Source: a bacterium
Lineage (GTDB): Bacteria; UBA8248
Length of the DNA stretch: 64,000 nt
Assembly: GCA_965207065.1 (NCBI GenBank)
Contig: OZ242260.1
Location: 3,712,001 to 3,776,000, forward strand
Direction of reading: 5' to 3'
Both the position numbers and the translations under genes were made by a program. Shown here piece by piece: positions 1,448-64,000 of this stretch. Below the pieces are notes generated by a model that saw only the letters and a program-made list of their open reading frames with translations, had not been told where the DNA came from and did not search any database. The first letter of the stretch is position 1; every line of letters starts with the position of its first letter.

Positions 1448-2908
1448 CTATATCGCAGAGGTGATGACGGGCCTGTCGATTCCCTTGAAGGCGACCGCAA
1501 TCTCATCGGCTGCTTTCGAGGCCGCATCCGCCGCTTCCTGCGCAAGCGCTTTTGCTCTTTCAACCGCCTGATGAGCGGATTCCGTCGCCCTGTCTTTCGC
1601 ATCCGCCAGATACGCGCTCGCTTGGGCCGAGAACTCGGCGGCTTCCGCCGCTGCGTATTTGGCCTGCTCGACTGCCGCCATCGCCAAATCCTTTGCCTTT
1701 TCCAGCATCTGGCGAACAGCCTGGTCGGTATCTTCTTCTTTATGCCGAAGCGCATGCGATGCATGCTCAAGGGCCGTATCCACCGATTCCATGGCCTTTT
1801 GGGCCGATTTCGCCGCAGCCTCGCTCGCTTCCGTCAAAGAAGGCATTCTGGGAATTTCCAGCGGCATCGTCGGGTCCGTCATCGTGTGAAGAATCTCGGC
1901 CCGGACTTCCTCCGAGGCCAGTCTTCTCGCCTCGGAGGCGCGCAAGCCCTCCTCGTCCACCATGATGTCGAGCCTCTTCGCCACCACGCGCTGGCTGGGC
2001 TCCCTCACCCCCCAGACCAAGCCTACGAGTTCCAACATCTTGATGAGCCGGTAGGTGATGTCCACCTCGAACCACCGTTGACCGTGGGCGGCCGAGCGCT
2101 GGTCCGCATGGTGGTTGTTGTGCCACCCCTCACCGAAGGAAAGCAGTGCGACGAGCCAGTTGTTGGTGCTTTCCTCGTCCGTGTTGTAATTGCGGTAGCC
2201 GAAGGTGTGCGTCACCGAATTCACCGCCCAGGTGTTGTGCCACAAAACGACCGTCCGCACGAATACGCCCCAAACGAGCCAGGACATGCCCAAGCCGCCG
2301 TATAATTCCCCGGCGAAGTAGATCGCCACCGCCGTCAGAACATAGATGGGGAAAAAGAATTTATCGAAAAAACGCTGCCATTTATCGCGGTGTAAATCCT
2401 TTGCGAAGCGCGAATACTCGTCATAGGTGTGCGCGTCCGGCAAGTTGACGAAAAGCCATCCCGCATGCGCCCACAGAAAACTCACGAGCGGGGAATGGGG
2501 GTCGGGCTCCTCGTCCGATTCCTTGTGGTGGATGCGGTGCATCGCCACCCACTCGATGGGTCCGCTCTGAAGCGCCTGGCAGGCGCAAAACGTGAAGAAA
2601 TACTCGACCGGCTTATACGTCTGGAAACTTCTGTGGGTCAGAAGCCGGTGATAGGAAATCGTCACACCCAGCATACCGGCCACGTAATACATGACGATTC
2701 CCACGACGAGACCGGAGACGCTGAAATAGTCCAGATCAAAAGCCATCAGGGCGAGCAGGTGAATCAACCCGATGACGAAGATGGTGCTCCACTGGAGCTT
2801 TCGTTCGTCTTTTCTGTGAATAGCGAGGCTGTGCTTCTTCGGAACCGTAGACAAGGGTTTTCTCCCATTCTCGAATAATCTATCTACAAGAGCATCCCAG
2901 AATTTCAT
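1448..2908 (-). CDS. delta-9-type acyl-lipid/acyl-CoA fatty acid desaturase with long Ala/Glu-rich C-terminal extension
   Basis: Three His boxes HRLLTH, HRIHH, GEGWHNNHH and TM segments; start ATG 2908 (TTG 2944 is an alternative). Confidence 0.92.
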   Translation of the reverse strand: MKFWDALVDRLFENGRKPLSTVPKKHSLAIHRKDERKLQWSTIFVIGLIHLLALMAFDLDYFSVSGLVVGIVMYYVAGMLGVTISYHRLLTHRSFQTYKPVEYFFTFCACQALQSGPIEWVAMHRIHHKESDEEPDPHSPLVSFLWAHAGWLFVNLPDAHTYDEYSRFAKDLHRDKWQRFFDKFFFPIYVLTAVAIYFAGELYGGLGMSWLVWGVFVRTVVLWHNTWAVNSVTHTFGYRNYNTDEESTNNWLVALLSFGEGWHNNHHADQRSAAHGQRWFEVDITYRLIKMLELVGLVWGVREPSQRVVAKRLDIMVDEEGLRASEARRLASEEVRAEILHTMTDPTMPLEIPRMPSLTEASEAAAKSAQKAMESVDTALEHASHALRHKEEDTDQAVRQMLEKAKDLAMAAVEQAKYAAAEAAEFSAQASAYLADAKDRATESAHQAVERAKALAQEAADAASKAADEIAVAFKGIDRPVITSAI

Positions 2909-3195
2909 TTCAGGTATGAGCGGACGATCAAGCGATGTTGCCAAGTCAATCTTCAGTCAAACTCAACATTTTGAGCAATCCCAAATATAATGGGCCAGAC
3001 GGGATCAGAAATCAAGTCCCCGAAAAGAAACAATGTCTCCTGGCAACACATCTTTACAAACTTTTACCGTCGCGCGGCCATGAGGGCGCAACACCCGGAA
3101 ACACAGGAGAATTCACTCGTCCGCGTTGTCATTTGGCAGATTCTCCCGTAAGAAACGTATTCCATATCCACACGTCATCCTGTGAGGAGAATACC

Positions 3196-4080
3196 ATGCC
3201 CGAAGTGAGAACAAACGGGGTCAATCTGTATTACGAAGCCAGCGGCGAGGGTGCGCCCATCGTCTTCGTTCATGAATTCGCGGGAGACTGCCGCAGTTGG
3301 GAGGATCAGGTCCGGTATTTCAACCGCAGATACCGGGTCATCACCTATAACGCGAGAGGATTTCCGCCCTCCGAAGTGCCGGAAGACGCATCGCAATACA
3401 GCCAGGACATCGCCGTGAACGACCTGGCCGGCCTCATCAGTGATCTGGGCCTCGCGCCCGCCCACGTCGTAGGACTATCGATGGGCGGCTATGCGACTCT
3501 CCACCTTGGCCTCCGCCACCCGGAACTTACCCGCTCCATCGTCGTGGCCGGGTGCGGCTACGGCTCCGAAATGGATCAGCGCGAAAGATTCCAAAAAGAC
3601 GCAGAAATTGTGGCCGACCGGTTCCTGAGCGAGAGCTTGGAGAAGTTCGGCCCCGTCTACACCGCCGGCCCCACGCGCATGCAACTGAAAAGAAAAGACG
3701 CGATCGGCTACCAGAAATTCATCGACCACTTCATGAGCCATTCCCCTCTGGGCTGCTCGAACACGATGCGCGGGGTACAGAGCGCGAGGCCTTCGGTCTA
3801 TGAACTCGGAGAGCAGATGAAGAACTGCTCCGTGCCTACGCTCGTTCTCACGGGAGATGAGGACTTCCCCTGCCTGGAGCCCGGGCTGTTCATAAAGCGC
3901 AACATCCAGACGGCCGCCCTCGTCACCTTCCCCAACTCCGGCCACCTTATCAACCTCGAAGAACCCGCCATGTTTAACCGCACCGTTCTCGAGTTCATCA
4001 CCGAGGTGGACGCCGGACGTTGGCCGATGCGCGACCCGCTCTCGATGGGAGAATCCGCGTTACTGCCGGACGAGGAATAG
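3196..4080 (+). CDS. alpha/beta fold hydrolase
   Basis: VHEFAGD and GLSMGG nucleophile elbow, C-terminal GH; GAGGAG RBS before ATG 3196. Confidence 0.92.
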   Translation: MPEVRTNGVNLYYEASGEGAPIVFVHEFAGDCRSWEDQVRYFNRRYRVITYNARGFPPSEVPEDASQYSQDIAVNDLAGLISDLGLAPAHVVGLSMGGYATLHLGLRHPELTRSIVVAGCGYGSEMDQRERFQKDAEIVADRFLSESLEKFGPVYTAGPTRMQLKRKDAIGYQKFIDHFMSHSPLGCSNTMRGVQSARPSVYELGEQMKNCSVPTLVLTGDEDFPCLEPGLFIKRNIQTAALVTFPNSGHLINLEEPAMFNRTVLEFITEVDAGRWPMRDPLSMGESALLPDEE

Positions 4081-4948: not shown

Positions 4949-6319
4949 ATGAAGAAAGCCCCTATCGTTTGTGAGGATGTCTCCCCCGCATTCCCGCCCT
5001 ATCCGGTGGCAGTCAAGGCCGGCGAGCTATTGTTCGTCTCAGGATTAAGACCCGTCGGCCCGGCTGGATTCGCAGACCTGCCCGAAGCCGGACGCGAGCA
5101 GATGCAGGGCTACCCGCTCGCCGACCTCACGGAAGAGCGAGTCGTCGCCGACTCCTGGGCTGTCCACGACAGCCTCGAAAAAGTTCTCGTCGCGGCGGGC
5201 ACGCATCGCGACCAGGTGCTGCGCCAGCATATCTGGCAGCGCGACAAGCGTTATTTTCCCAACTACGAACAAGTCCGGGTGCACTGGCAGCCGACGCCCG
5301 CACCGAGCAGCGGGCTGGGCGTGACTGACGTAATCGGGCGCGGCAGACACTGGATCGGTGTCGACGCCATCGCTGCCTGCACGCAAACCGGCGGCGTGTT
5401 CGGCGAACGCGAGGTGATGACCGACGTCTACAACCCGGATCTTCCCGCGGCCTCGCACTACTGCCAGGCGATACGCTCGGGCCCGTTCGCCTTTTTCGCC
5501 GGGCACATCCCGATCAAGACCGCAGAGCCCGGTAAACCGCTGGTCAACTCCTATGACGACGTGCCTGAGGAGGGTCGTTTCCTCTCAACTGGGCGCAGCC
5601 ATCCCGATAGCCGCCACGGCCCCATCGCATCGCAAACATGGTACGTCTTCAACGAGTTGCGCCGCACGCTCGCGGGCCACGGCATGGATATGGAAGACGT
5701 CGTGAACGTGTCGATTTTCCTGAGCGACCTGCGCGATTACTCCACGTACCACCGGGTACACACCCATTTCTTCCCGGAGGTTCAACCATCGCTTTGCGTC
5801 GTGGGATTCGACGAAGTGGGCCACCGCGGCACGCGCATCGAAATCGAAATCACCGCCATGGACAGGCGCAGTGGGCTCACCCGCCAGTCGTTCCCCTGGC
5901 CGGGGACGGCGCCCTTCGCGGCTCCCGCCGTCACGCAGGCGGGGCCGGTTTGTTACTTCTCGGGCATGGTGGGCGTCGCCGAGGCGGGAGCGCTCGTGCG
6001 GGGCGCCGATTCCCTTACCGAAGCAGGGCGGCGCGCCGTGTTGCCTATGGAAAAATTTGAGCGGCGGCCGGGTCTCGCCGCGCAATGCTGGATGGCGTGG
6101 GAACAGCTACGCGCCGCCGCGGCGGGTGCGGATATGGAACTGGCGGACATCGCCATGACCAGGGTGTACCTCTCCGACCCGGCGGACTTGGGCGTGTACG
6201 AGGCGGTTCGCGAGACCTTCATCGACGAGGACCTGCCCGCGTTCGAGTGCGTGATCGTGCATGGTCCCGGTCCGGTTGCGGAATCGCTGGTCCAAATCGA
6301 CGCTATCGGAATGAAATAA
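4949..6319 (+). CDS. RidA/YjgF-family protein with three tandem Rid domains
   Basis: Three repeats: AVKAGELLFVSG, AIRSGPFAFFAG, AVTQAGPVCYFSG, ending in IGVDAIA, IEIEITA, VQIDAIG; GGAGG RBS. Confidence 0.82.
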   Translation: MKKAPIVCEDVSPAFPPYPVAVKAGELLFVSGLRPVGPAGFADLPEAGREQMQGYPLADLTEERVVADSWAVHDSLEKVLVAAGTHRDQVLRQHIWQRDKRYFPNYEQVRVHWQPTPAPSSGLGVTDVIGRGRHWIGVDAIAACTQTGGVFGEREVMTDVYNPDLPAASHYCQAIRSGPFAFFAGHIPIKTAEPGKPLVNSYDDVPEEGRFLSTGRSHPDSRHGPIASQTWYVFNELRRTLAGHGMDMEDVVNVSIFLSDLRDYSTYHRVHTHFFPEVQPSLCVVGFDEVGHRGTRIEIEITAMDRRSGLTRQSFPWPGTAPFAAPAVTQAGPVCYFSGMVGVAEAGALVRGADSLTEAGRRAVLPMEKFERRPGLAAQCWMAWEQLRAAAAGADMELADIAMTRVYLSDPADLGVYEAVRETFIDEDLPAFECVIVHGPGPVAESLVQIDAIGMK

Positions 6320-6349
6320 CGGGAACGACAAAAACGACGCCTTGCGGGG

Positions 6350-7033
6350 TCAGAACCAGGCCCACAAATCTTCCTTTGCGCGAAGTTCCTCGCTGTCTCC
6401 GTCGAAAACGATGCGCCCGCCTTTGAGCACGATTGCGCGCTCGACAACGTCCAGGGCGGCGAGCACGTTCTGCTCGACGAGGATCAGTCCGGTACCGAGT
6501 TCTGAGTTGATACGCGAGAGCGAGCCCAGCACGCTTTTCACGATTGCCGGAGCGAGGCCGGCGGTCGGCTCGTCGAGCAGGAGGATTTGGGGCCGCGTCA
6601 TCAAGGCCAGCGCGACCGCGAGCATCTGCTGCTCTCCACCGCTCATGTCGCCTGCGAGCTGGTCCTGGCGTTCCCGCAGCAGCGGAAAAAGGGCAAAAGC
6701 CTCCTCGAGAAACGAGGAGTCTGACTTCGAACCGGCGATGTGGAGGTTCTGCTCGACCGTGAGGTTCGGAAAAACGTTCTGGACCTGCGGCACGAAGCCG
6801 ATTCCCAGCATGACGTTGCGGTGAACCTGATCCGGCACGATGGGCGAACCACCGAAATCCACGTCGCCGGAAACATCCCTGACGCCACCCACCAGACACT
6901 TGAGAAACGTCGACTTGCCCGAACCGTTGTGACCGAATATTCCTATCCGCACACTGGTCTCGAAAGACAGCGACACGTCGTTCACGGCGATAAGCGGCCC
7001 GTAGCGGGCCGTGAGGTTTTGGACTTCGAACAT
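6350..7033 (-). CDS. branched-chain amino acid-type ABC transporter ATPase (LivF-like)
   Basis: Walker A GHNGSGKS, MSGGEQQM, LLLDEP; start MFEVQ at 7033. Confidence 0.93.
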   Translation of the reverse strand: MFEVQNLTARYGPLIAVNDVSLSFETSVRIGIFGHNGSGKSTFLKCLVGGVRDVSGDVDFGGSPIVPDQVHRNVMLGIGFVPQVQNVFPNLTVEQNLHIAGSKSDSSFLEEAFALFPLLRERQDQLAGDMSGGEQQMLAVALALMTRPQILLLDEPTAGLAPAIVKSVLGSLSRINSELGTGLILVEQNVLAALDVVERAIVLKGGRIVFDGDSEELRAKEDLWAWF

Positions 7034-59316: not shown

Positions 59317-60309
59317 TCACGCTCGCAGGCAACCGTCCAGAAACCCGAACGCTTGTTCTTCGGCCCAGTAGGCCGGCGAGCGGGGGTTCCCTCCAGCCAC
59401 AAATCCCACGTGCCCGCCATTTTTTACCAAAACGCCGCTCAGCCACTCCGATTCCGCCACTTCCCGGTGAGGAAAAACGTGGGGCGGCACGATGGGGTCG
59501 TCTTCCGCGGAGAGGATGAGCGTTTTTACGCGAACATGGGGCAGATAAGGCGAAGCGTCGGCTTTCTCATAATAATCAAGCTCATCCCGGAAACCATAGA
59601 GCGGCGCGATGACGAGGCGGTCGAAATGGTGAAAAGTCCGCGCGCGGCGCACCCCCTCGATGTCGATGAGGCCGGGGTGCAGTTTCACGAAACGCTCCGC
59701 TTTTCTCTTGACGCTGCTCAGCAGGTGCCACCTGTAGAAATAGCCGGCCACGGAATCGAGCACTTTCGCGCATGCGGCAGGATTGATACTCGCGGATATG
59801 CAGGCGGCGCCGCGTATGCGGGCGGATACCCCATCGCCACATTCACCGAGCCACTTGAGCAGGACGTTCCCTCCCAGGGAGAAGCCCGCCAGCACGAGCG
59901 GCCCGCTGAACCGCTCCAGGATCCGCCCCGCCACGAAGCCCGGATCCCCCGTTTCTCCGCAATGGTAGAACCTGGGGTTCCGGTTCGGCTCGCCGCTGCA
60001 GGAGCGGTAGTTGAGCGCCAGCGTCCGCCAGCCGAGCGCGCGCGCCCTGGCCGCCGCGCCGCGCACGTAATGGGAATCGGCAGAACCTTCCAGGCCGTGC
60101 AGGACGAGCAGCGTCGGGGCGTCCGGATCGTCTGCGTCCAAAAAATCGACGTCCACGAAATCGCCGTCGGGCGTATCCCAACGCTCGCGCCGCCAGGGGA
60201 TGCGCGGGCGTTTTCTCAAATAATATCCCCAAACGCTCTGGAGATGCCGGCCCCGGCAATACCAGGCCGGGCGGAAAGGGGGGGTGAGCGAAGATTTTTT
60301 AAGTTTCAT
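59317..60309 (-). CDS. YheT-family alpha/beta hydrolase
   Basis: HLQS, HGLEGS, NYRSCSG, GFSLGGN, DDP, GGHVGF motifs. Confidence 0.93.
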   Translation of the reverse strand: MKLKKSSLTPPFRPAWYCRGRHLQSVWGYYLRKRPRIPWRRERWDTPDGDFVDVDFLDADDPDAPTLLVLHGLEGSADSHYVRGAAARARALGWRTLALNYRSCSGEPNRNPRFYHCGETGDPGFVAGRILERFSGPLVLAGFSLGGNVLLKWLGECGDGVSARIRGAACISASINPAACAKVLDSVAGYFYRWHLLSSVKRKAERFVKLHPGLIDIEGVRRARTFHHFDRLVIAPLYGFRDELDYYEKADASPYLPHVRVKTLILSAEDDPIVPPHVFPHREVAESEWLSGVLVKNGGHVGFVAGGNPRSPAYWAEEQAFGFLDGCLRA

Positions 60310-60320
60310 GCCGCGCGCAT

Positions 60321-60784
60321 GGGAGCTGTTGAATTACCTCGATGAACGAGGGTTTGACACGCGCGATGAAAGAGCAAGATTCACTCCCTCCTTGAGGGGT
60401 TGTTGGAAAAGTCCTCCACGGTCGGAATTGACCACCGCCGTCATTCCGGCGAAAGCCGGAATCCATTGTCGAGCTGGATGGCAATATTCCGGCTATTCAT
60501 CTCCAAGTCGTTTGAAGGAAGCAAGCAGAAAATAAAAAACAAAGGAAAAACAAATGGATTCCGTCGAACCCTCTCTCCTCGGTCGGTTCCGACACCGGAA
60601 TGACGATGCCTCTGCTTGGTCGATAAACAAGAATGTAGGGACAGGTCGCGACCTGTCCCTACCAAAACACAATCGCTCGCTCCTCGCTCATGTCAAACCC
60701 TCGTCCATCGGAGCTTTTTCAACAGCCCCCTCAAGGGAGGAGTGAAATCTAGCGCACTTCTTCCGACGCTTTTCCAACAACCCC
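60321..60784. mobile_element. nested non-autonomous MITE-like elements containing REP-like palindromes
   Basis: Inverted pairs 60321-60360/60690-60730 (imperfect), 60396-60411/60769-60784 (perfect 16 bp), 60381-60399/60726-60745; REP-like hairpins at 60439-60465 and 60635-60662; no transposase. Confidence 0.65.
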
Positions 60785-60800
60785 GTATGCGGGCGCGCGA

Positions 60801-61718
60801 TCAGGCGTCCTGATCTAGAAACGCTTTATAAATGCCCTCGCGGTGCGTCGGCGGGTCGAAGCGGTATTCCAGCTTGTATTTCTGCGCCAGCACCTGATAA
60901 AGACCCAGCGAATTACAGAAAAACGCGTTCGATGAGCAAACCAGCCAGATGCGGTAAATCCGGTACGTGCGCTCGCCGACGAGTTCCTTTATTTTCTGCG
61001 CGTTCGCCTCGAATTTCTCGTACCAGTGCTTGCACGTGCGCGCGTAGTGGAGTCTCAGATTCTCCACGTCCAGGATCTCCCAGCGCGCAAGCTCCATGAT
61101 GTCCTGAATGTGGGAGATGTTGTCCATCTCGCCGTTGGGGAAGACGTTACGCAGAAGAAATTCGTTCTGGCTCGATGGTTTCCAGAATTTGTTCGTCGTG
61201 ATCCCGTGGTTGAGGAACAAGCCGCCGTCGCGCAGGCGCTTTCTCACCGAAGTGAAGTAGCTCATATAGTTCGCAATGCCAACGTGCTCGATAATCCCGA
61301 TGGCGGAAATCTTGTCGAAAGTCCTCTCTTCGGGGAAATCGCGGTAATCCATGTGGTGGATCTCGCACCTGTCGTCGATGCCCTCGCGGCGCGCCCACTC
61401 CTGGCCCCACTTCGCCTGCTCGCGCGAGAGGGTGACGGCGGTGGCGTTCACGCCGTAGTGCTTCGCCGCCCAAATCGCCAGCGAACCCCACCCGCAGCCG
61501 ATGTCGAGATAGTCCTCTCCGGGCGAGAGCCTGAGCTTCCGGCAGACGAGGTCCATCTTGTCGCGCTGCGCCTGGGCGAGATCGCCGTCGGGTTCGCGGT
61601 AATAGGCGCACGTATAGAGCATGTTCTCGCACAGGAACTGCTCGTAGAACTCGTTGGAGAGATCGTAATGGTGCGATATCGCCTCGGCGTCGAATTCCTT
61701 TGTTCGCTCTTTTACCAT
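60801..61718 (-). CDS. cyclopropane-fatty-acyl-phospholipid synthase family methyltransferase (catalytic domain only)
   Basis: ISHHYDLSNEFY, YTCAY, LDIGCGWG, EHVG, VFP.G, HYART motifs. Confidence 0.93.
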   Translation of the reverse strand: MVKERTKEFDAEAISHHYDLSNEFYEQFLCENMLYTCAYYREPDGDLAQAQRDKMDLVCRKLRLSPGEDYLDIGCGWGSLAIWAAKHYGVNATAVTLSREQAKWGQEWARREGIDDRCEIHHMDYRDFPEERTFDKISAIGIIEHVGIANYMSYFTSVRKRLRDGGLFLNHGITTNKFWKPSSQNEFLLRNVFPNGEMDNISHIQDIMELARWEILDVENLRLHYARTCKHWYEKFEANAQKIKELVGERTYRIYRIWLVCSSNAFFCNSLGLYQVLAQKYKLEYRFDPPTHREGIYKAFLDQDA

Positions 61719-61737
61719 GGCAGCCTCAATGTTTTGT

Positions 61738-62850
61738 TCAACCGATTCCGAATGCGCCTTCCAGAACCAGCCGGCGTCTGAGCCAGGCGTTGCCGCAAAT
61801 GAATTTCGCCACGCCGAAAAGAACCTTATCCGGAAGACGATCGATCAATTTATCGAACAACCCTTCCCCGCCGCTTCCATATTTCTCATAGAGCGCCTCG
61901 CCGTATTCGGCGATGCCCTCCCCCGTATCCAGATACTCGTGCGCGGCCTCGGCCGCCATTTTAGCACTATGGACGGCGGGGCCGATGCCCTCTCCGCTGA
62001 AATCTTTCGCCAGGCCTGCGGCGTCGCCGATCAGGGCGAAGCCATCGCCCGCAGGCCGCCGGACGTGCCTGCGGTGAACCGAATAGGCGTGGCCGCGGAA
62101 TTTCGTGAGTTCCATCTTCGCGGGCAGCCTGCCCGTTTCGCGGAATTTTTCGAGCAGAATATCGAGACGCTCATGGACGCTCGGCTTCTTGCCGATGCAG
62201 CCGACGCCGATGTTCAAAAAATCCCCTTTGGTGAAATACCAGGCATAGCCCTTGAAGTCGGGTTCCGCAAACAACTCGGGCAAACCGTAGTTGGGCGCCA
62301 GGGCGCGGAGTTTCTCGGCGCCCACGTTCGTCTCGCTCTCCTGGGTCAGGACGACGGATTCTTTTGACGACACGTCGCCGAACGTTCTGGCCACAGGGCA
62401 GGTATGCCCCCCCGCGCCGATGACGAGCGGAGCCTCGATTTTCTCATCGCCAACATCAACGCGCATCCCGCCTGACGTTTTCTCCACGCCGCGCACCCTG
62501 ACGCCCTCTCGCACCTCGGCGCCCTCTTCCTGCGCGCGCCTCAGGAGCCAGGTGTCGAACTGGCTCCTGATGATCCCGTAGCTCGCGGGTTCGCTCCACC
62601 TGGTCTCCAGGAGCTTGTCGTCATAGCCCACGAAAACGCTTTGAAACGGCTGGATGGTGTGGGGGTATTCATTCGGGTCTAGTTTCAGGTCGCCCATCAC
62701 CTGCTTCGTCACCCAGCCCGCGCAGAGTTTTACGCGCGGGAACGCCGCTGCGTCGAGCACCAGGGCTCGGCGGCCGCGCTTCGCCAGCTCCCACGCGGCC
62801 GTGCTGCCGCCCGGGCCTCCTCCGACGACGATGACGTCCCAAGTACTCAT
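61738..62850 (-). CDS. geranylgeranyl-reductase-family FAD-dependent oxidoreductase
   Basis: VGGGPGGS, FPRVKLCAG, RSQFD, GYAWYF, GDAAG...GEGI motifs; ATGA overlap with upstream gene. Confidence 0.9.
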   Translation of the reverse strand: MSTWDVIVVGGGPGGSTAAWELAKRGRRALVLDAAAFPRVKLCAGWVTKQVMGDLKLDPNEYPHTIQPFQSVFVGYDDKLLETRWSEPASYGIIRSQFDTWLLRRAQEEGAEVREGVRVRGVEKTSGGMRVDVGDEKIEAPLVIGAGGHTCPVARTFGDVSSKESVVLTQESETNVGAEKLRALAPNYGLPELFAEPDFKGYAWYFTKGDFLNIGVGCIGKKPSVHERLDILLEKFRETGRLPAKMELTKFRGHAYSVHRRHVRRPAGDGFALIGDAAGLAKDFSGEGIGPAVHSAKMAAEAAHEYLDTGEGIAEYGEALYEKYGSGGEGLFDKLIDRLPDKVLFGVAKFICGNAWLRRRLVLEGAFGIG

Positions 62851-63203
62851 TCCGAGAGTTTCCATATGCGAAGGGCCAACTTGAATTTCTGCATCGTGGT
62901 CAATTCGATATTCTCGAAGCTGTCGGCCACCTTCATGGCCTCGAACAGATCGCCCTCGAAATCGATGACCGAGTTGCAATACGCCTCGGCGAAAGCATCC
63001 GCGGTGGGATTCAGTAGTATGTGCTTGAAAGAATCGAGCGAGGGGAACGTAATTTCCAGGGGCAGCACTTCGCGGCCCACGGATATCGTAGTCCCGTCCC
63101 ACATGCGGAAGCGGAGCCCGTGGTCCATATCGCCGAAAACGTCGCGGAGAATATCGGCGGCGCCGGGAACTGCGGAACGGCTCTTTACATGAGTTGACTG
63201 CAT
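62847..63203 (-). CDS. stand-alone protein resembling the N-terminal lipid-binding domain of long CFA synthases
   Basis: FRMWDGT...LLNP...FAEAY...IDFEGDLFEA; GGAGG RBS. Confidence 0.75.
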   Translation of the reverse strand: MQSTHVKSRSAVPGAADILRDVFGDMDHGLRFRMWDGTTISVGREVLPLEITFPSLDSFKHILLNPTADAFAEAYCNSVIDFEGDLFEAMKVADSFENIELTTMQKFKLALRIWKLSE

Positions 63204-63468
63204 GATGTCATCCTCCCATAGGGCGATAGGGGATGATATGTTCGACGCATTCTCTTAATTTGCAACTCGTCCATGGCCTCGTGTTGCGCCAGCGAGATAA
63301 CCTCAAGAAACCCCAACCTTCATACCTTTTGAATTAACGCTCATCGCGCATTCTGTCAACCCTTTTTTTCGGATCAATAGCGATTGATGAATGAATGATT
63401 GGCGCGACTGAGGAGTGAGGGGTTTCGGTTCGCCTACCGATGAGGGTTGTTCCTGATCCACGCAGAGG

Positions 63469-63538
63469 CGCCACCGTCATTCCGGCGCATGCCGGAATGG
63501 CGGCGAAACCTCCATCTCCGGGCTTTTTCAACAACCCC
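63469..63538. repeat. CGTCATTCC-type REP-like hairpin plus MITE-type end
   Basis: CGTCATTCCGGC-GCAT-GCCGGAATGGCG and CTTTTTCAACAACCCC, matching motifs at 60.4-60.8 kb. Confidence 0.6.
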
Positions 63539-63672
63539 GAGAAGGGAGCAATGGCGGTTGCGACAGAGAATGTCGTTTTCCACATGCGTCTATCGATATA
63601 ATAAAAATGCAGTTGATGCGTCAGATATATATGCTATATTTTCTGACATCTGGAAACAGAAGGAATCCACAA

Positions 63673-64000
63673 ATGAGTTCTGTGGCCAACAGGATTATGA
63701 AAAGGATATCCGAAAACGCCGGCGAGGGATGGGTTTGCGCGCCGAGGGACTTTCTGGATATCGGAAGCCGAGAGGCCGTCGATCAGGCCTTGTCGCGCCT
63801 CGTGAAGGCCGGAAAAGTGCGCCGGATCGGCCGCGGCTTGTACGACCAGCCGAGGATGAGCGCTGTGCTGAAGCGTACCGCCCCTGTCGACCTTGACGCC
63901 GCCATAGCCGCAATCGCCAGGAGGGACGGAATTCACGTCATGCCCGACGGCATGGCGGCCGCCAACGGACTCGGCCTCACGAACGCGGTTCCCGCCAGAC
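63673..64000 (+). CDS. DUF6088/AbiEi-like wHTH protein (type IV TA antitoxin-like), truncated by the window end
   Basis: Hand-translated MSSVANRIMKRI...DFLDIGSREAVDQALSRLVKAGKVRRIGRGLY...AANGLGLTNAVPA; AAGGA RBS. Confidence 0.82.
   Translation, partial: MSSVANRIMKRISENAGEGWVCAPRDFLDIGSREAVDQALSRLVKAGKVRRIGRGLYDQPRMSAVLKRTAPVDLDAAIAAIARRDGIHVMPDGMAAANGLGLTNAVPAR

Follow-up and report, generated by a model that had tools for sequence, protein, structure and literature searches.

Analysis of a 64,000-nucleotide (nt) stretch of a bacterial genome (contig OZ242260.1 of assembly GCA_965207065.1, positions 3,712,001 to 3,776,000; called the window below) showed a cassette of three genes lying head to tail on the minus strand, in which the two halves of a cyclopropane fatty acid (CFA) synthase-like enzyme are encoded by separate open reading frames (ORFs) with a flavoprotein gene between them (Table 1). 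From 5′ to 3′, the order is N-domain, reductase, and methyltransferase. The reductase ORF listed by the program (61738-63102) begins at an upstream GTG, whereas the ATG at 62850-62848 gives the 370-amino-acid (aa) protein and runs into the TGA that ends the N-domain gene (62849-62847), as ATGA. The methyltransferase start follows the reductase stop after 19 nt, and a Shine-Dalgarno-like GGGAGGA lies 7 nt ahead of the N-domain ATG. An earlier reading made from the letters alone (the sequence-only reading) had described this three-gene order and its ATGA coupling, and both were seen again here. As judged from the sequence, the N-domain and reductase genes are translationally coupled, and the three genes form one operon. 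The operon likely ends at a terminator-like hairpin, which is a consensus match only, in a region that held 5 such sites compared to 4.3 expected from shuffles. A promoter scan upstream of the N-domain gene found no convincing site, and an Rfam scan of 60200-63700 gave zero matches at an E value of ≤0.1.

TABLE 1 Features of the three-gene cassette in the window and the additional gene of the four-gene form at other loci
Feature	Position	Strand	Basis or remark
Stand-alone CFA-synthase N-domain (DUF7884, SCP2-like fold), 118 aa	62847-63203	minus	ORF, Pfam, CfaB model, AlphaFold (AF2) model
TmpA-like flavoprotein, geranylgeranyl reductase family, 370 aa, putative exomethylene reductase	61738-62850	minus	TIGR02032, clade position
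CMAS-family S-adenosylmethionine (SAM) methyltransferase catalytic domain without N-domain, 305 aa	60801-61718	minus	Pfam, CfaB model, hhalign
Terminator-like hairpin, 12-bp stem with 7 G-C pairs, T-rich tail	60635-60662	minus	~140 nt past the methyltransferase stop
DesA-family desaturase, 246-265 aa	L073, L093, L097, L101: ~6011-6748; L096: 5954-6748		

The product of the first gene matched Pfam DUF7884 (PF25371) at 29.3 bits (cut-off, 27) and positions 5-82 of the 393-position NCBIfam CfaB model. Its AF2 model, built from a 24-row alignment, had a predicted local distance difference test (pLDDT) score of 90.1. The top Foldseek hits of this model were the CFA synthases of Aquifex (7qos) and Lactobacillus (5z9o), with E values of 1.5e-3 to 7e-3, followed by sterol-carrier-protein-2 (SCP2) domains, including UbiJ-SCP2 and alkylsulfatase C-terminal domains. 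A second structural aligner matched it to residues 5-86 of 7qos (Z 6.9) and residues 2-96 of 5z9o (Z 6.3), ranges that are exactly the N-domains of these enzymes; SCP2 domains tied with the CFA synthases at Z 5-6.7, and all of these Z-scores are middling. At the sequence level, hhalign gave a weak match to E. coli Cfa (probability of 17%, residues 33-69, with an AEAY/GESY motif in common) and a match of 92% probability to the N-domain of P0256, a natural fusion protein described below. In its SCP2-like lipid-carrier fold, the model bears out the earlier suggestion of a free lipid-carrier subunit. A two-domain CFA synthase typically carries its N-domain on the same chain, and here the N-domain has an ORF of its own. 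A profile search of 1.84 billion proteins gave 2236 representatives at an E value of ≤0.001; by length, the best 150 of these comprised 58 of ≤135 aa, 76 of 136-300 aa (a mixture of fragments and read-through calls), and 16 of >300 aa.

The methyltransferase supplies the other half. It matched Pfam CMAS (PF02353) with an E value of 1.2e-86 over positions 4-272 of the 273 in the profile, and the CfaB model over positions 97-393. Because the two proteins cover 5-82 and 97-393 of that model, the cut falls in the interdomain linker, and the view that a Cfa-type enzyme is divided here by the gene for a flavin adenine dinucleotide (FAD) reductase held up. Alignment of the methyltransferase with residues 117-374 of E. 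coli Cfa by hhalign had a probability of 100, and its best PDB matches were CFA synthases (7qos, 5z9o, and 6bqc). Among 24 cassette methyltransferases, the SAM-binding motif GCGWG, C37, E144, and Y225 were invariant and H171 was nearly so (≥90%). Glu144 (IIEHVG), His171 (LNHGIT), Tyr225 (LHYART), and Cys37 (YTCAYY) align with the E. coli CFA synthase 6bqc; the counterpart of Cys37 is presumably also a bicarbonate-site residue. To our knowledge, no sequence feature separates ring-forming from methylene-forming enzymes of this kind. PMC11387697 names Glu239, His266, and Tyr317 of the E. coli enzyme as the residues that bind bicarbonate.

These data bear on one alternative, plain cyclopropanation, in which the Cfa halves would reassemble as an ordinary synthase and the reductase would act elsewhere or would open or modify the ring later. 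The bicarbonate ligands and the GCGWG motif are all kept, the best curated model match is a cyclopropane synthase (CfaB, 317 bits), and no second strong CMAS gene is present in the genome to account for cyclopropane acids (its second-best CMAS match scored 68.5 bits against a cut-off of 290.8). The sequence-only reading had inferred from the retained Glu, His, and Tyr that cyclopropanation stays possible. The retention was confirmed by the alignment to 6bqc and by the conservation in the 24 cassette proteins, but the same residues are conserved in the methylene-forming BfaB as in E. coli Cfa, according to a heading in supplement 3 of PMC7791843, and so they are uninformative on the product. 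The CfaB score is also far below the cut-off of that model (650 bits). Moreover, an unrelated reductase would not be expected between the halves of a methylase across phyla with a stop/start overlap, nor in single-chain fusions with a methylase, and both were found (see below). We therefore regard plain cyclopropanation as unlikely.

The protein encoded between the two halves belongs to the geranylgeranyl reductase (GGR) family, matching TIGR02032 at 168 bits (cut-off, 158.8). Its scores against the specific GGR equivalogs all fell far short of the cut-offs: 77.7 versus 580 bits for DGGGPL reductase, 114.8 versus 343.3 and 69.2 versus 505.3 for ChlP/BchP, and 67.3 versus 700 for MenJ. Its closest solved relatives are the archaeal GGRs 3oz2 (Thermoplasma) and 3atq (Sulfolobus), with which its Cys (KLCAGW) and its YxWxF motif (YAWYF) align. 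In 24 cassette reductases, G10-G12 (GxGxxG), C43, Y202, W204, and F206 were invariant. A second invariant Cys, C151, lies in a GAGGHxCPV motif and by eye is also present in the Desulfobacter TmpA of PMC7791843. The reductase match contained an in-frame stop in two relatives (G024:C154:4289-5398 and G345:C202:24461-25561; one TAG, one TGA), due perhaps to sequencing error or to decay of the gene copies.

Further analysis showed that the arrangement is conserved and widespread. All 17 relatives' loci (15 in genomes of the same genus and 2 in genomes of the same family) had the N-domain/reductase/methyltransferase order; the N-domains were 40-97% identical, the reductases 67-96%, and the methyltransferases 74-97%. 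At an E value of ≤1e-100, the reductase was present in 41 of 51 genomes of the window's phylum, with 40 of the 41 other genomes of its own family and none of the 9 genomes of the other three families having it. A scan with the reductase profile, taking one genome per species, yielded 313 relatives, from which 79 loci were kept; their titles name Nitrospinota/Nitrospinaceae, Tectomicrobia, Binatia, Rokubacteria/Methylomirabilota, "Deltaproteobacteria," Thermodesulfobacteriota, Planctomycetota, and one "Proteobacteria." All three matches, in the same order and on one strand, were found at 70 of these 79 loci, under at least seven phylum labels. At L068, the N-domain match lay 2 kb upstream. One locus (L078) had no N-domain match, and three were truncated by the contig end (L043, L051, and L055). 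The 4-nt stop/start overlap between the N-domain and reductase genes was present at 48 of the 74 loci that had both matches, and at a further 20 of these the spacing was −13 to +28 nt. The recurrence is far beyond chance. The synteny search proposed with the sequence-only reading thus showed that the order is not unique to this assembly: it was found at every one of the 17 relatives' loci and at 70 of the 79 loci kept from the wider scan, and the cassette is no assembly artefact. A tie to a cultured producer of 10-methyl lipids was sought with the reductase of one Methylomirabilia-labelled locus (L091) and was dropped, since the search gave only labels of metagenome-assembled genomes: among the 120 matches listed, none of them below 76% identity, the organisms named were Rokuibacteriota and Methylomirabilota, with a single Patescibacteria label besides, and Methylomirabilis oxyfera did not occur.

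A Cfa homologue paired with a GGR-like reductase has a precedent in print. Blitzblau 2021 (PMC7791843) looked in Desulfobacteraceae, which produce 10-methylpalmitate, and in other bacteria for genes of Cfa homologues with a reductase gene next to them and named the resulting two-gene operon tmpBA (ten-methyl-palmitate); its hosts are Desulfobacter, Desulfobacula, Marinobacter hydrocarbonoclasticus, and Thiohalospira halophila. TmpB, the Cfa homologue, made 10-methylene-16:0 in E. coli with four of five operons and acted on C14-C18 chains with delta-9 to delta-11 double bonds, and TmpA is similar to archaeal geranylgeranyl reductases (PMC7791843). Stand-ins for tmpBA were collected from the phylum to which G041 belongs (its locus L058 is titled Thermodesulfobacteriota), where 42 of 301 genomes matched the reductase profile at an E value of ≤1e-30. 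The best 30 of these loci comprised 2 split cassettes, 10 pairs in which a long Cfa gene is followed by the reductase gene, 5 short tmpBA-like pairs, and 13 lone reductases. In the long pairs, the ORFs read encode a Cfa of 405-437 aa and a reductase of 369-371 aa; in the short pairs, a Cfa of 370-401 aa is followed by a reductase of 321-336 aa. One short-type reductase bears Desulfobacterales and Desulfobacteraceae names, and the short pairs resemble the Desulfobacter TmpB/TmpA of supplement 3 of PMC7791843 by eye only.

Phylogenetic analysis, by quick trees in the case of the reductases, grouped these layouts. In a tree of 72 reductases, all the Cfa-linked ones fell on one side of a branch and 11 lone GGRs on the other (Shimodaira-Hasegawa-like approximate likelihood ratio test [SH-aLRT] support, 99), and a reduced 42-row tree had the same outcome. 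The cassette reductase is thus in one clade with those of the tmpBA-like pairs, which are stand-ins for the published TmpA. Within the Cfa-linked reductases, the split type forms a single 47-row clade (support, 99), into which four of the five reductase-only loci also fall, together with three further loci lacking an N-domain match, two of them cut by contig ends. The Cfa-linked reductases are therefore of common descent. The methylases tell a different story in that their 33-domain tree had three parts: the split type formed one group (support, 84), the short tmpB-like enzymes clustered with E. coli Cfa (99), and the long fused type was a third clade (99), which includes L135, a Cfa without a linked reductase from the reductase-only genome G042. 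One reductase lineage thus has methylase partners from at least three CMAS lineages.

The same three modules also occur naturally in single chains. Among the long homologues of the methyltransferase (134 proteins at an E value of ≤1e-30), P0256 (824 aa) has a reductase at 3-302 that is 34% identical to the one in the window, an N-domain at 413-503, and a CMAS domain at 517-780. P0548 (777 aa) has a weak DUF7884 match at 51-104, CMAS at 125-381, and a reductase from 417; P0333 (694 aa), from the P0548 cluster but on a second contig, has a reductase part 37% identical over its full length. Fusions of the three modules therefore exist in two orders, reductase-N-CMAS and N-CMAS-reductase. Three other candidates were rejected as fusions. 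The long methyltransferase frames of L076 and L103 (~970 aa) appear to be read-through of GC-rich DNA or frameshifts, the former having no further domain and the latter entering an AMP-binding gene; P0241, with CMAS plus desaturase, is garbled where its CMAS part ends and is probably a frameshift join that shows adjacency only.

The longer homologues raise another alternative. The furan fatty acid pathway uses the UfaM methylase together with an FAD enzyme, and the flavoprotein of the cassette might by analogy be a desaturase or isomerase giving an unsaturated or oxidised, furan fatty acid-like methyl-branched product. Such a pathway exists in bacteria (PMC7380195), and many of the longer homologues are CMAS relatives joined to DUF1365 or to an FAD domain of the amine-oxidase type. 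The cassette flavoprotein, however, is GGR-type and not of the amine-oxidase or phytoene-desaturase type, and no DUF1365 or other third enzyme was found to recur in the cassette. All characterised members of the GGR family that we know of are reductases. A furan-type product is thus highly improbable.

The genes attached to the cassette in some lineages are also informative. In 14 Rokubacteria/Methylomirabilota loci, 30 of 68 candidate ORFs, the downstream ones, were scanned. A DesA-family acyl-lipid desaturase gene directly followed the methyltransferase gene at 5 of the 14, which makes a four-gene cassette (Table 1), and in the same position two loci had an enoyl-CoA hydratase and one had an AMP-binding enzyme. 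These neighbors weigh on a further alternative, in which the CMAS enzyme would C-methylate a prenyl double bond (in a polyprenyl, quinone, or squalene-type lipid) and the GGR-type enzyme would saturate prenyl bonds like its archaeal and MenJ-type relatives. The family of the reductase, the kept archaeal-GGR Cys and YxWxF motifs, and the label "menaquinone-9 beta-reductase" that sources often give its relatives are consistent with an isoprenoid substrate. However, no recurrent isoprenoid gene was found beside the cassette; the extra lipid genes that are attached are the DesA-family desaturase, the enoyl-CoA hydratase, or the AMP-binding acyl-activating enzyme; the Cfa-linked reductases are a clade separate from the lone GGRs; and the only relatives of the pair tested work on fatty acyl chains (PMC7791843). 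We consider an isoprenoid substrate improbable, more so than plain cyclopropanation.

The explanation we favor, if with some reserve, is that the cassette is a three-subunit variant of the tmp-type pathway leading to mid-chain methyl-branched fatty acids. We observe the identities of the domains, a conserved gene order, a shared ancestry of the Cfa-linked reductases, and natural fusions; we infer the product, the reduction, the electron donor, and the protein contacts. By homology, the SCP2-like N-domain and the CMAS subunit would jointly make up an intact Cfa-like enzyme acting on a cis-monounsaturated phospholipid acyl chain. If this enzyme behaves as TmpB and BfaB do, which are not the closest methylases to that of the cassette, a methyl group would pass from SAM to the double bond and give an exomethylene intermediate instead of a cyclopropane ring. 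The TmpA-like flavoprotein, with reduced FAD, would then reduce the exomethylene C=C bond to a saturated methyl-branched chain, for instance, 10-methyl-16:0. The double bond itself could come from a desaturase: the window's genome has two FA_desaturase genes, and the one in the window (1448-2944, minus strand), which has a Pfam FA_desaturase match and scored 129 bits against the DesA family cut-off of 400, is a possible supplier.

Several points weigh against this explanation. First, among the relatives of the reductase only TmpA has been studied, and it showed no activity in E. coli or yeast (PMC7791843); because of this the reductase step is unproven for the whole clade. Second, the split methyltransferases are a lineage of their own and not sisters of the short-type tmpBA-like stand-ins for TmpB, which means that the product of TmpB is not simply transferable. 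Third, every bicarbonate ligand of true cyclopropane synthases is kept, so that cyclopropanation would be compatible with the sequence. Fourth, the E. coli CFA synthase is strongly reduced in activity when its N-domain, described as a lipid-binding domain, is separated from the catalytic domain or when the linker is altered (PMC11387697). Fifth, at 5 of the 79 loci (L066, L071, L075, L080, and L088) the reductase has no Cfa part nearby, and one of these reductase-only genomes has an ordinary full-length Cfa at another place. Sixth, no named cultured organism was found that has both a known 10-methyl lipid and the split form, and the literature searched on 10-methyl acids in Methylomirabilis yielded none about the genes. 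Finally, support for expression is weak. Contigs that are 95-99% alike and come from RNA libraries (four runs from three studies) cover parts of all three genes, and two of them span the N-domain/reductase junction, but such contigs do not prove transcription; their coverage of the cassette is partial, and the uncovered parts prove nothing.

A more specific idea, which we offer only tentatively and think somewhat doubtful, is that the N-domain is a lipid-presenting subunit shared by both enzymes. It would lift the acyl chain from the membrane and present it in turn to methyltransferase and flavoreductase, the three proteins forming a metabolon. Such sharing would explain the coupling of the N-domain and reductase genes across phyla, the occurrence of fusions in either order, and the inactivity of TmpA alone in foreign hosts. 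If it is correct, 10-methyl and other mid-chain-branched acids of Rokubacteria, Binatia, Nitrospinota-like bacteria, and other uncultured phyla would come from this cassette, whose role as their source has gone unrecognised.

Mid-chain methyl-branched acids such as 10-methyl-16:0 serve as lipid markers for actinomycetes and for Desulfobacter-type sulfate reducers. With the cassette present in many uncultured lineages of soils, groundwater, and the sea, the range of possible producers would widen, and, should the N-domain be shared as just described, the use of these lipids as actinomycete or Desulfobacter markers would be undermined. The split clade also offers new reductase candidates for the undemonstrated reductase step of the tmp pathway. 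Its genomes carry genes of the FA_desaturase family, whose enzymes are oxygen-dependent, and for this reason the cassette reductases may work where TmpA failed. Working reductases would be of practical interest for saturated branched lipids, a goal of the 2021 paper (PMC7791843). Furthermore, the natural split would mean that the N-domain of a CFA synthase can work, or was selected to work, as a separate protein, whereas the artificial split of the E. coli enzyme was harmful (PMC11387697).

Some features around the cassette were also recorded. The noncoding DNA on both sides of it (60340-60746 and 63471-63553 in the window) contains related repeats: an inverted pair (60340-60410 and 60675-60746) is ~80% complementary, has ~300 nt between its arms, and looks like a miniature inverted-repeat transposable element, and direct-repeat copies lie at 60435-60462/63471-63498 and 60708-60744/63517-63553. 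Just upstream, a partial ORF at 63607-63999 (plus strand, running off the window) has matches to DUF6088 and, weakly, to the AbiEi antitoxin domain. Downstream lies an alpha/beta-hydrolase gene (59317-60309, minus strand), the position of which is kept in six relatives' loci of the Nitrospinota/Tectomicrobia group; this may reflect simple relatedness. Eight loci of one sub-clade (L058, L064, L069, L070, L083, L084, L086, and L090; Pfam was run on four of the eight) have, upstream of the cassette and in divergent orientation, a gene for an ABC-F type ATPase (~1800-3700), which has no evident link to the pathway. Long plus-strand ORFs upstream of the cassette at five loci had no Pfam family and were discarded, the real gene being the divergent ABC-F ATPase on the other strand.

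Comparison with known systems places the cassette as follows. The CFA synthases (E. coli 6bqc, Aquifex 7qos, and Lactobacillus 5z9o) have in common with it the catalytic domain, the bicarbonate ligands, and the N-domain fold; in the cassette, these domains are on two polypeptides with a dedicated reductase attached, and the product, unlike theirs, is probably not a cyclopropane. The archaeal GGRs, ChlP/BchP, and MenJ share with the reductase the FAD fold, the Cys near the flavin, and the YxWxF motif; the reductase belongs to a clade apart from lone GGRs, and its presumed substrate is an exomethylene fatty acyl chain whereas theirs is a prenyl chain. UbiJ presents a hydrophobic substrate to the flavin and SAM enzymes of one pathway, and its SCP2 domain (6h6p) aligns with the N-domain model at a middling Z of 5.0; with no sequence relation between the two, this is a comparison of how they may work only.

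The bfaAB/tmsAB systems of actinomycetes, which make 10-methylstearate and tuberculostearic acid, follow the same two-step logic with a Cfa-like methylase, and both of their steps were shown experimentally (PMC7791843 and PMC5660069). However, in these the A gene precedes the B gene, the BfaB protein is undivided, and the cassette has a GGR-type reductase in place of the BfaA-type flavoprotein, a member of another family for which PMC7791843 reports no meaningful homology to TmpA. In the cassette as in tmpBA, a gene for a GGR-family flavoprotein adjoins that of a Cfa/CMAS methyltransferase in one operon, and the proposed chemistry is the same methylenation followed by reduction. On the other hand, TmpB is one chain with its N-domain and the order is B then A, whereas the cassette has three genes in the order N-domain, reductase, methyltransferase; the cassette reductase is ~45 aa longer at the C terminus (370 aa compared to 321-336 aa in the tmpBA-like pairs fetched); and the methyltransferase is of a CMAS lineage other than the tmpBA-like short type. 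The sequence-only reading had proposed a Cfa-type methylase with a GGR-type reductase as an alternative route to methyl branches. This is still the best-supported explanation, but it is not new in kind, tmpBA being in print (PMC7791843); the established systems were given as BfaB/BfaA and TmsB/TmsA, with tmpBA omitted. In the literature searched, which left most subscription journals outside its coverage, no description of the split three-gene form was found, and the only pairing of Cfa with a GGR was that of PMC7791843. The pathway type is thus already known and half-characterised; the split layout of three genes and the breadth of its distribution are what is new.

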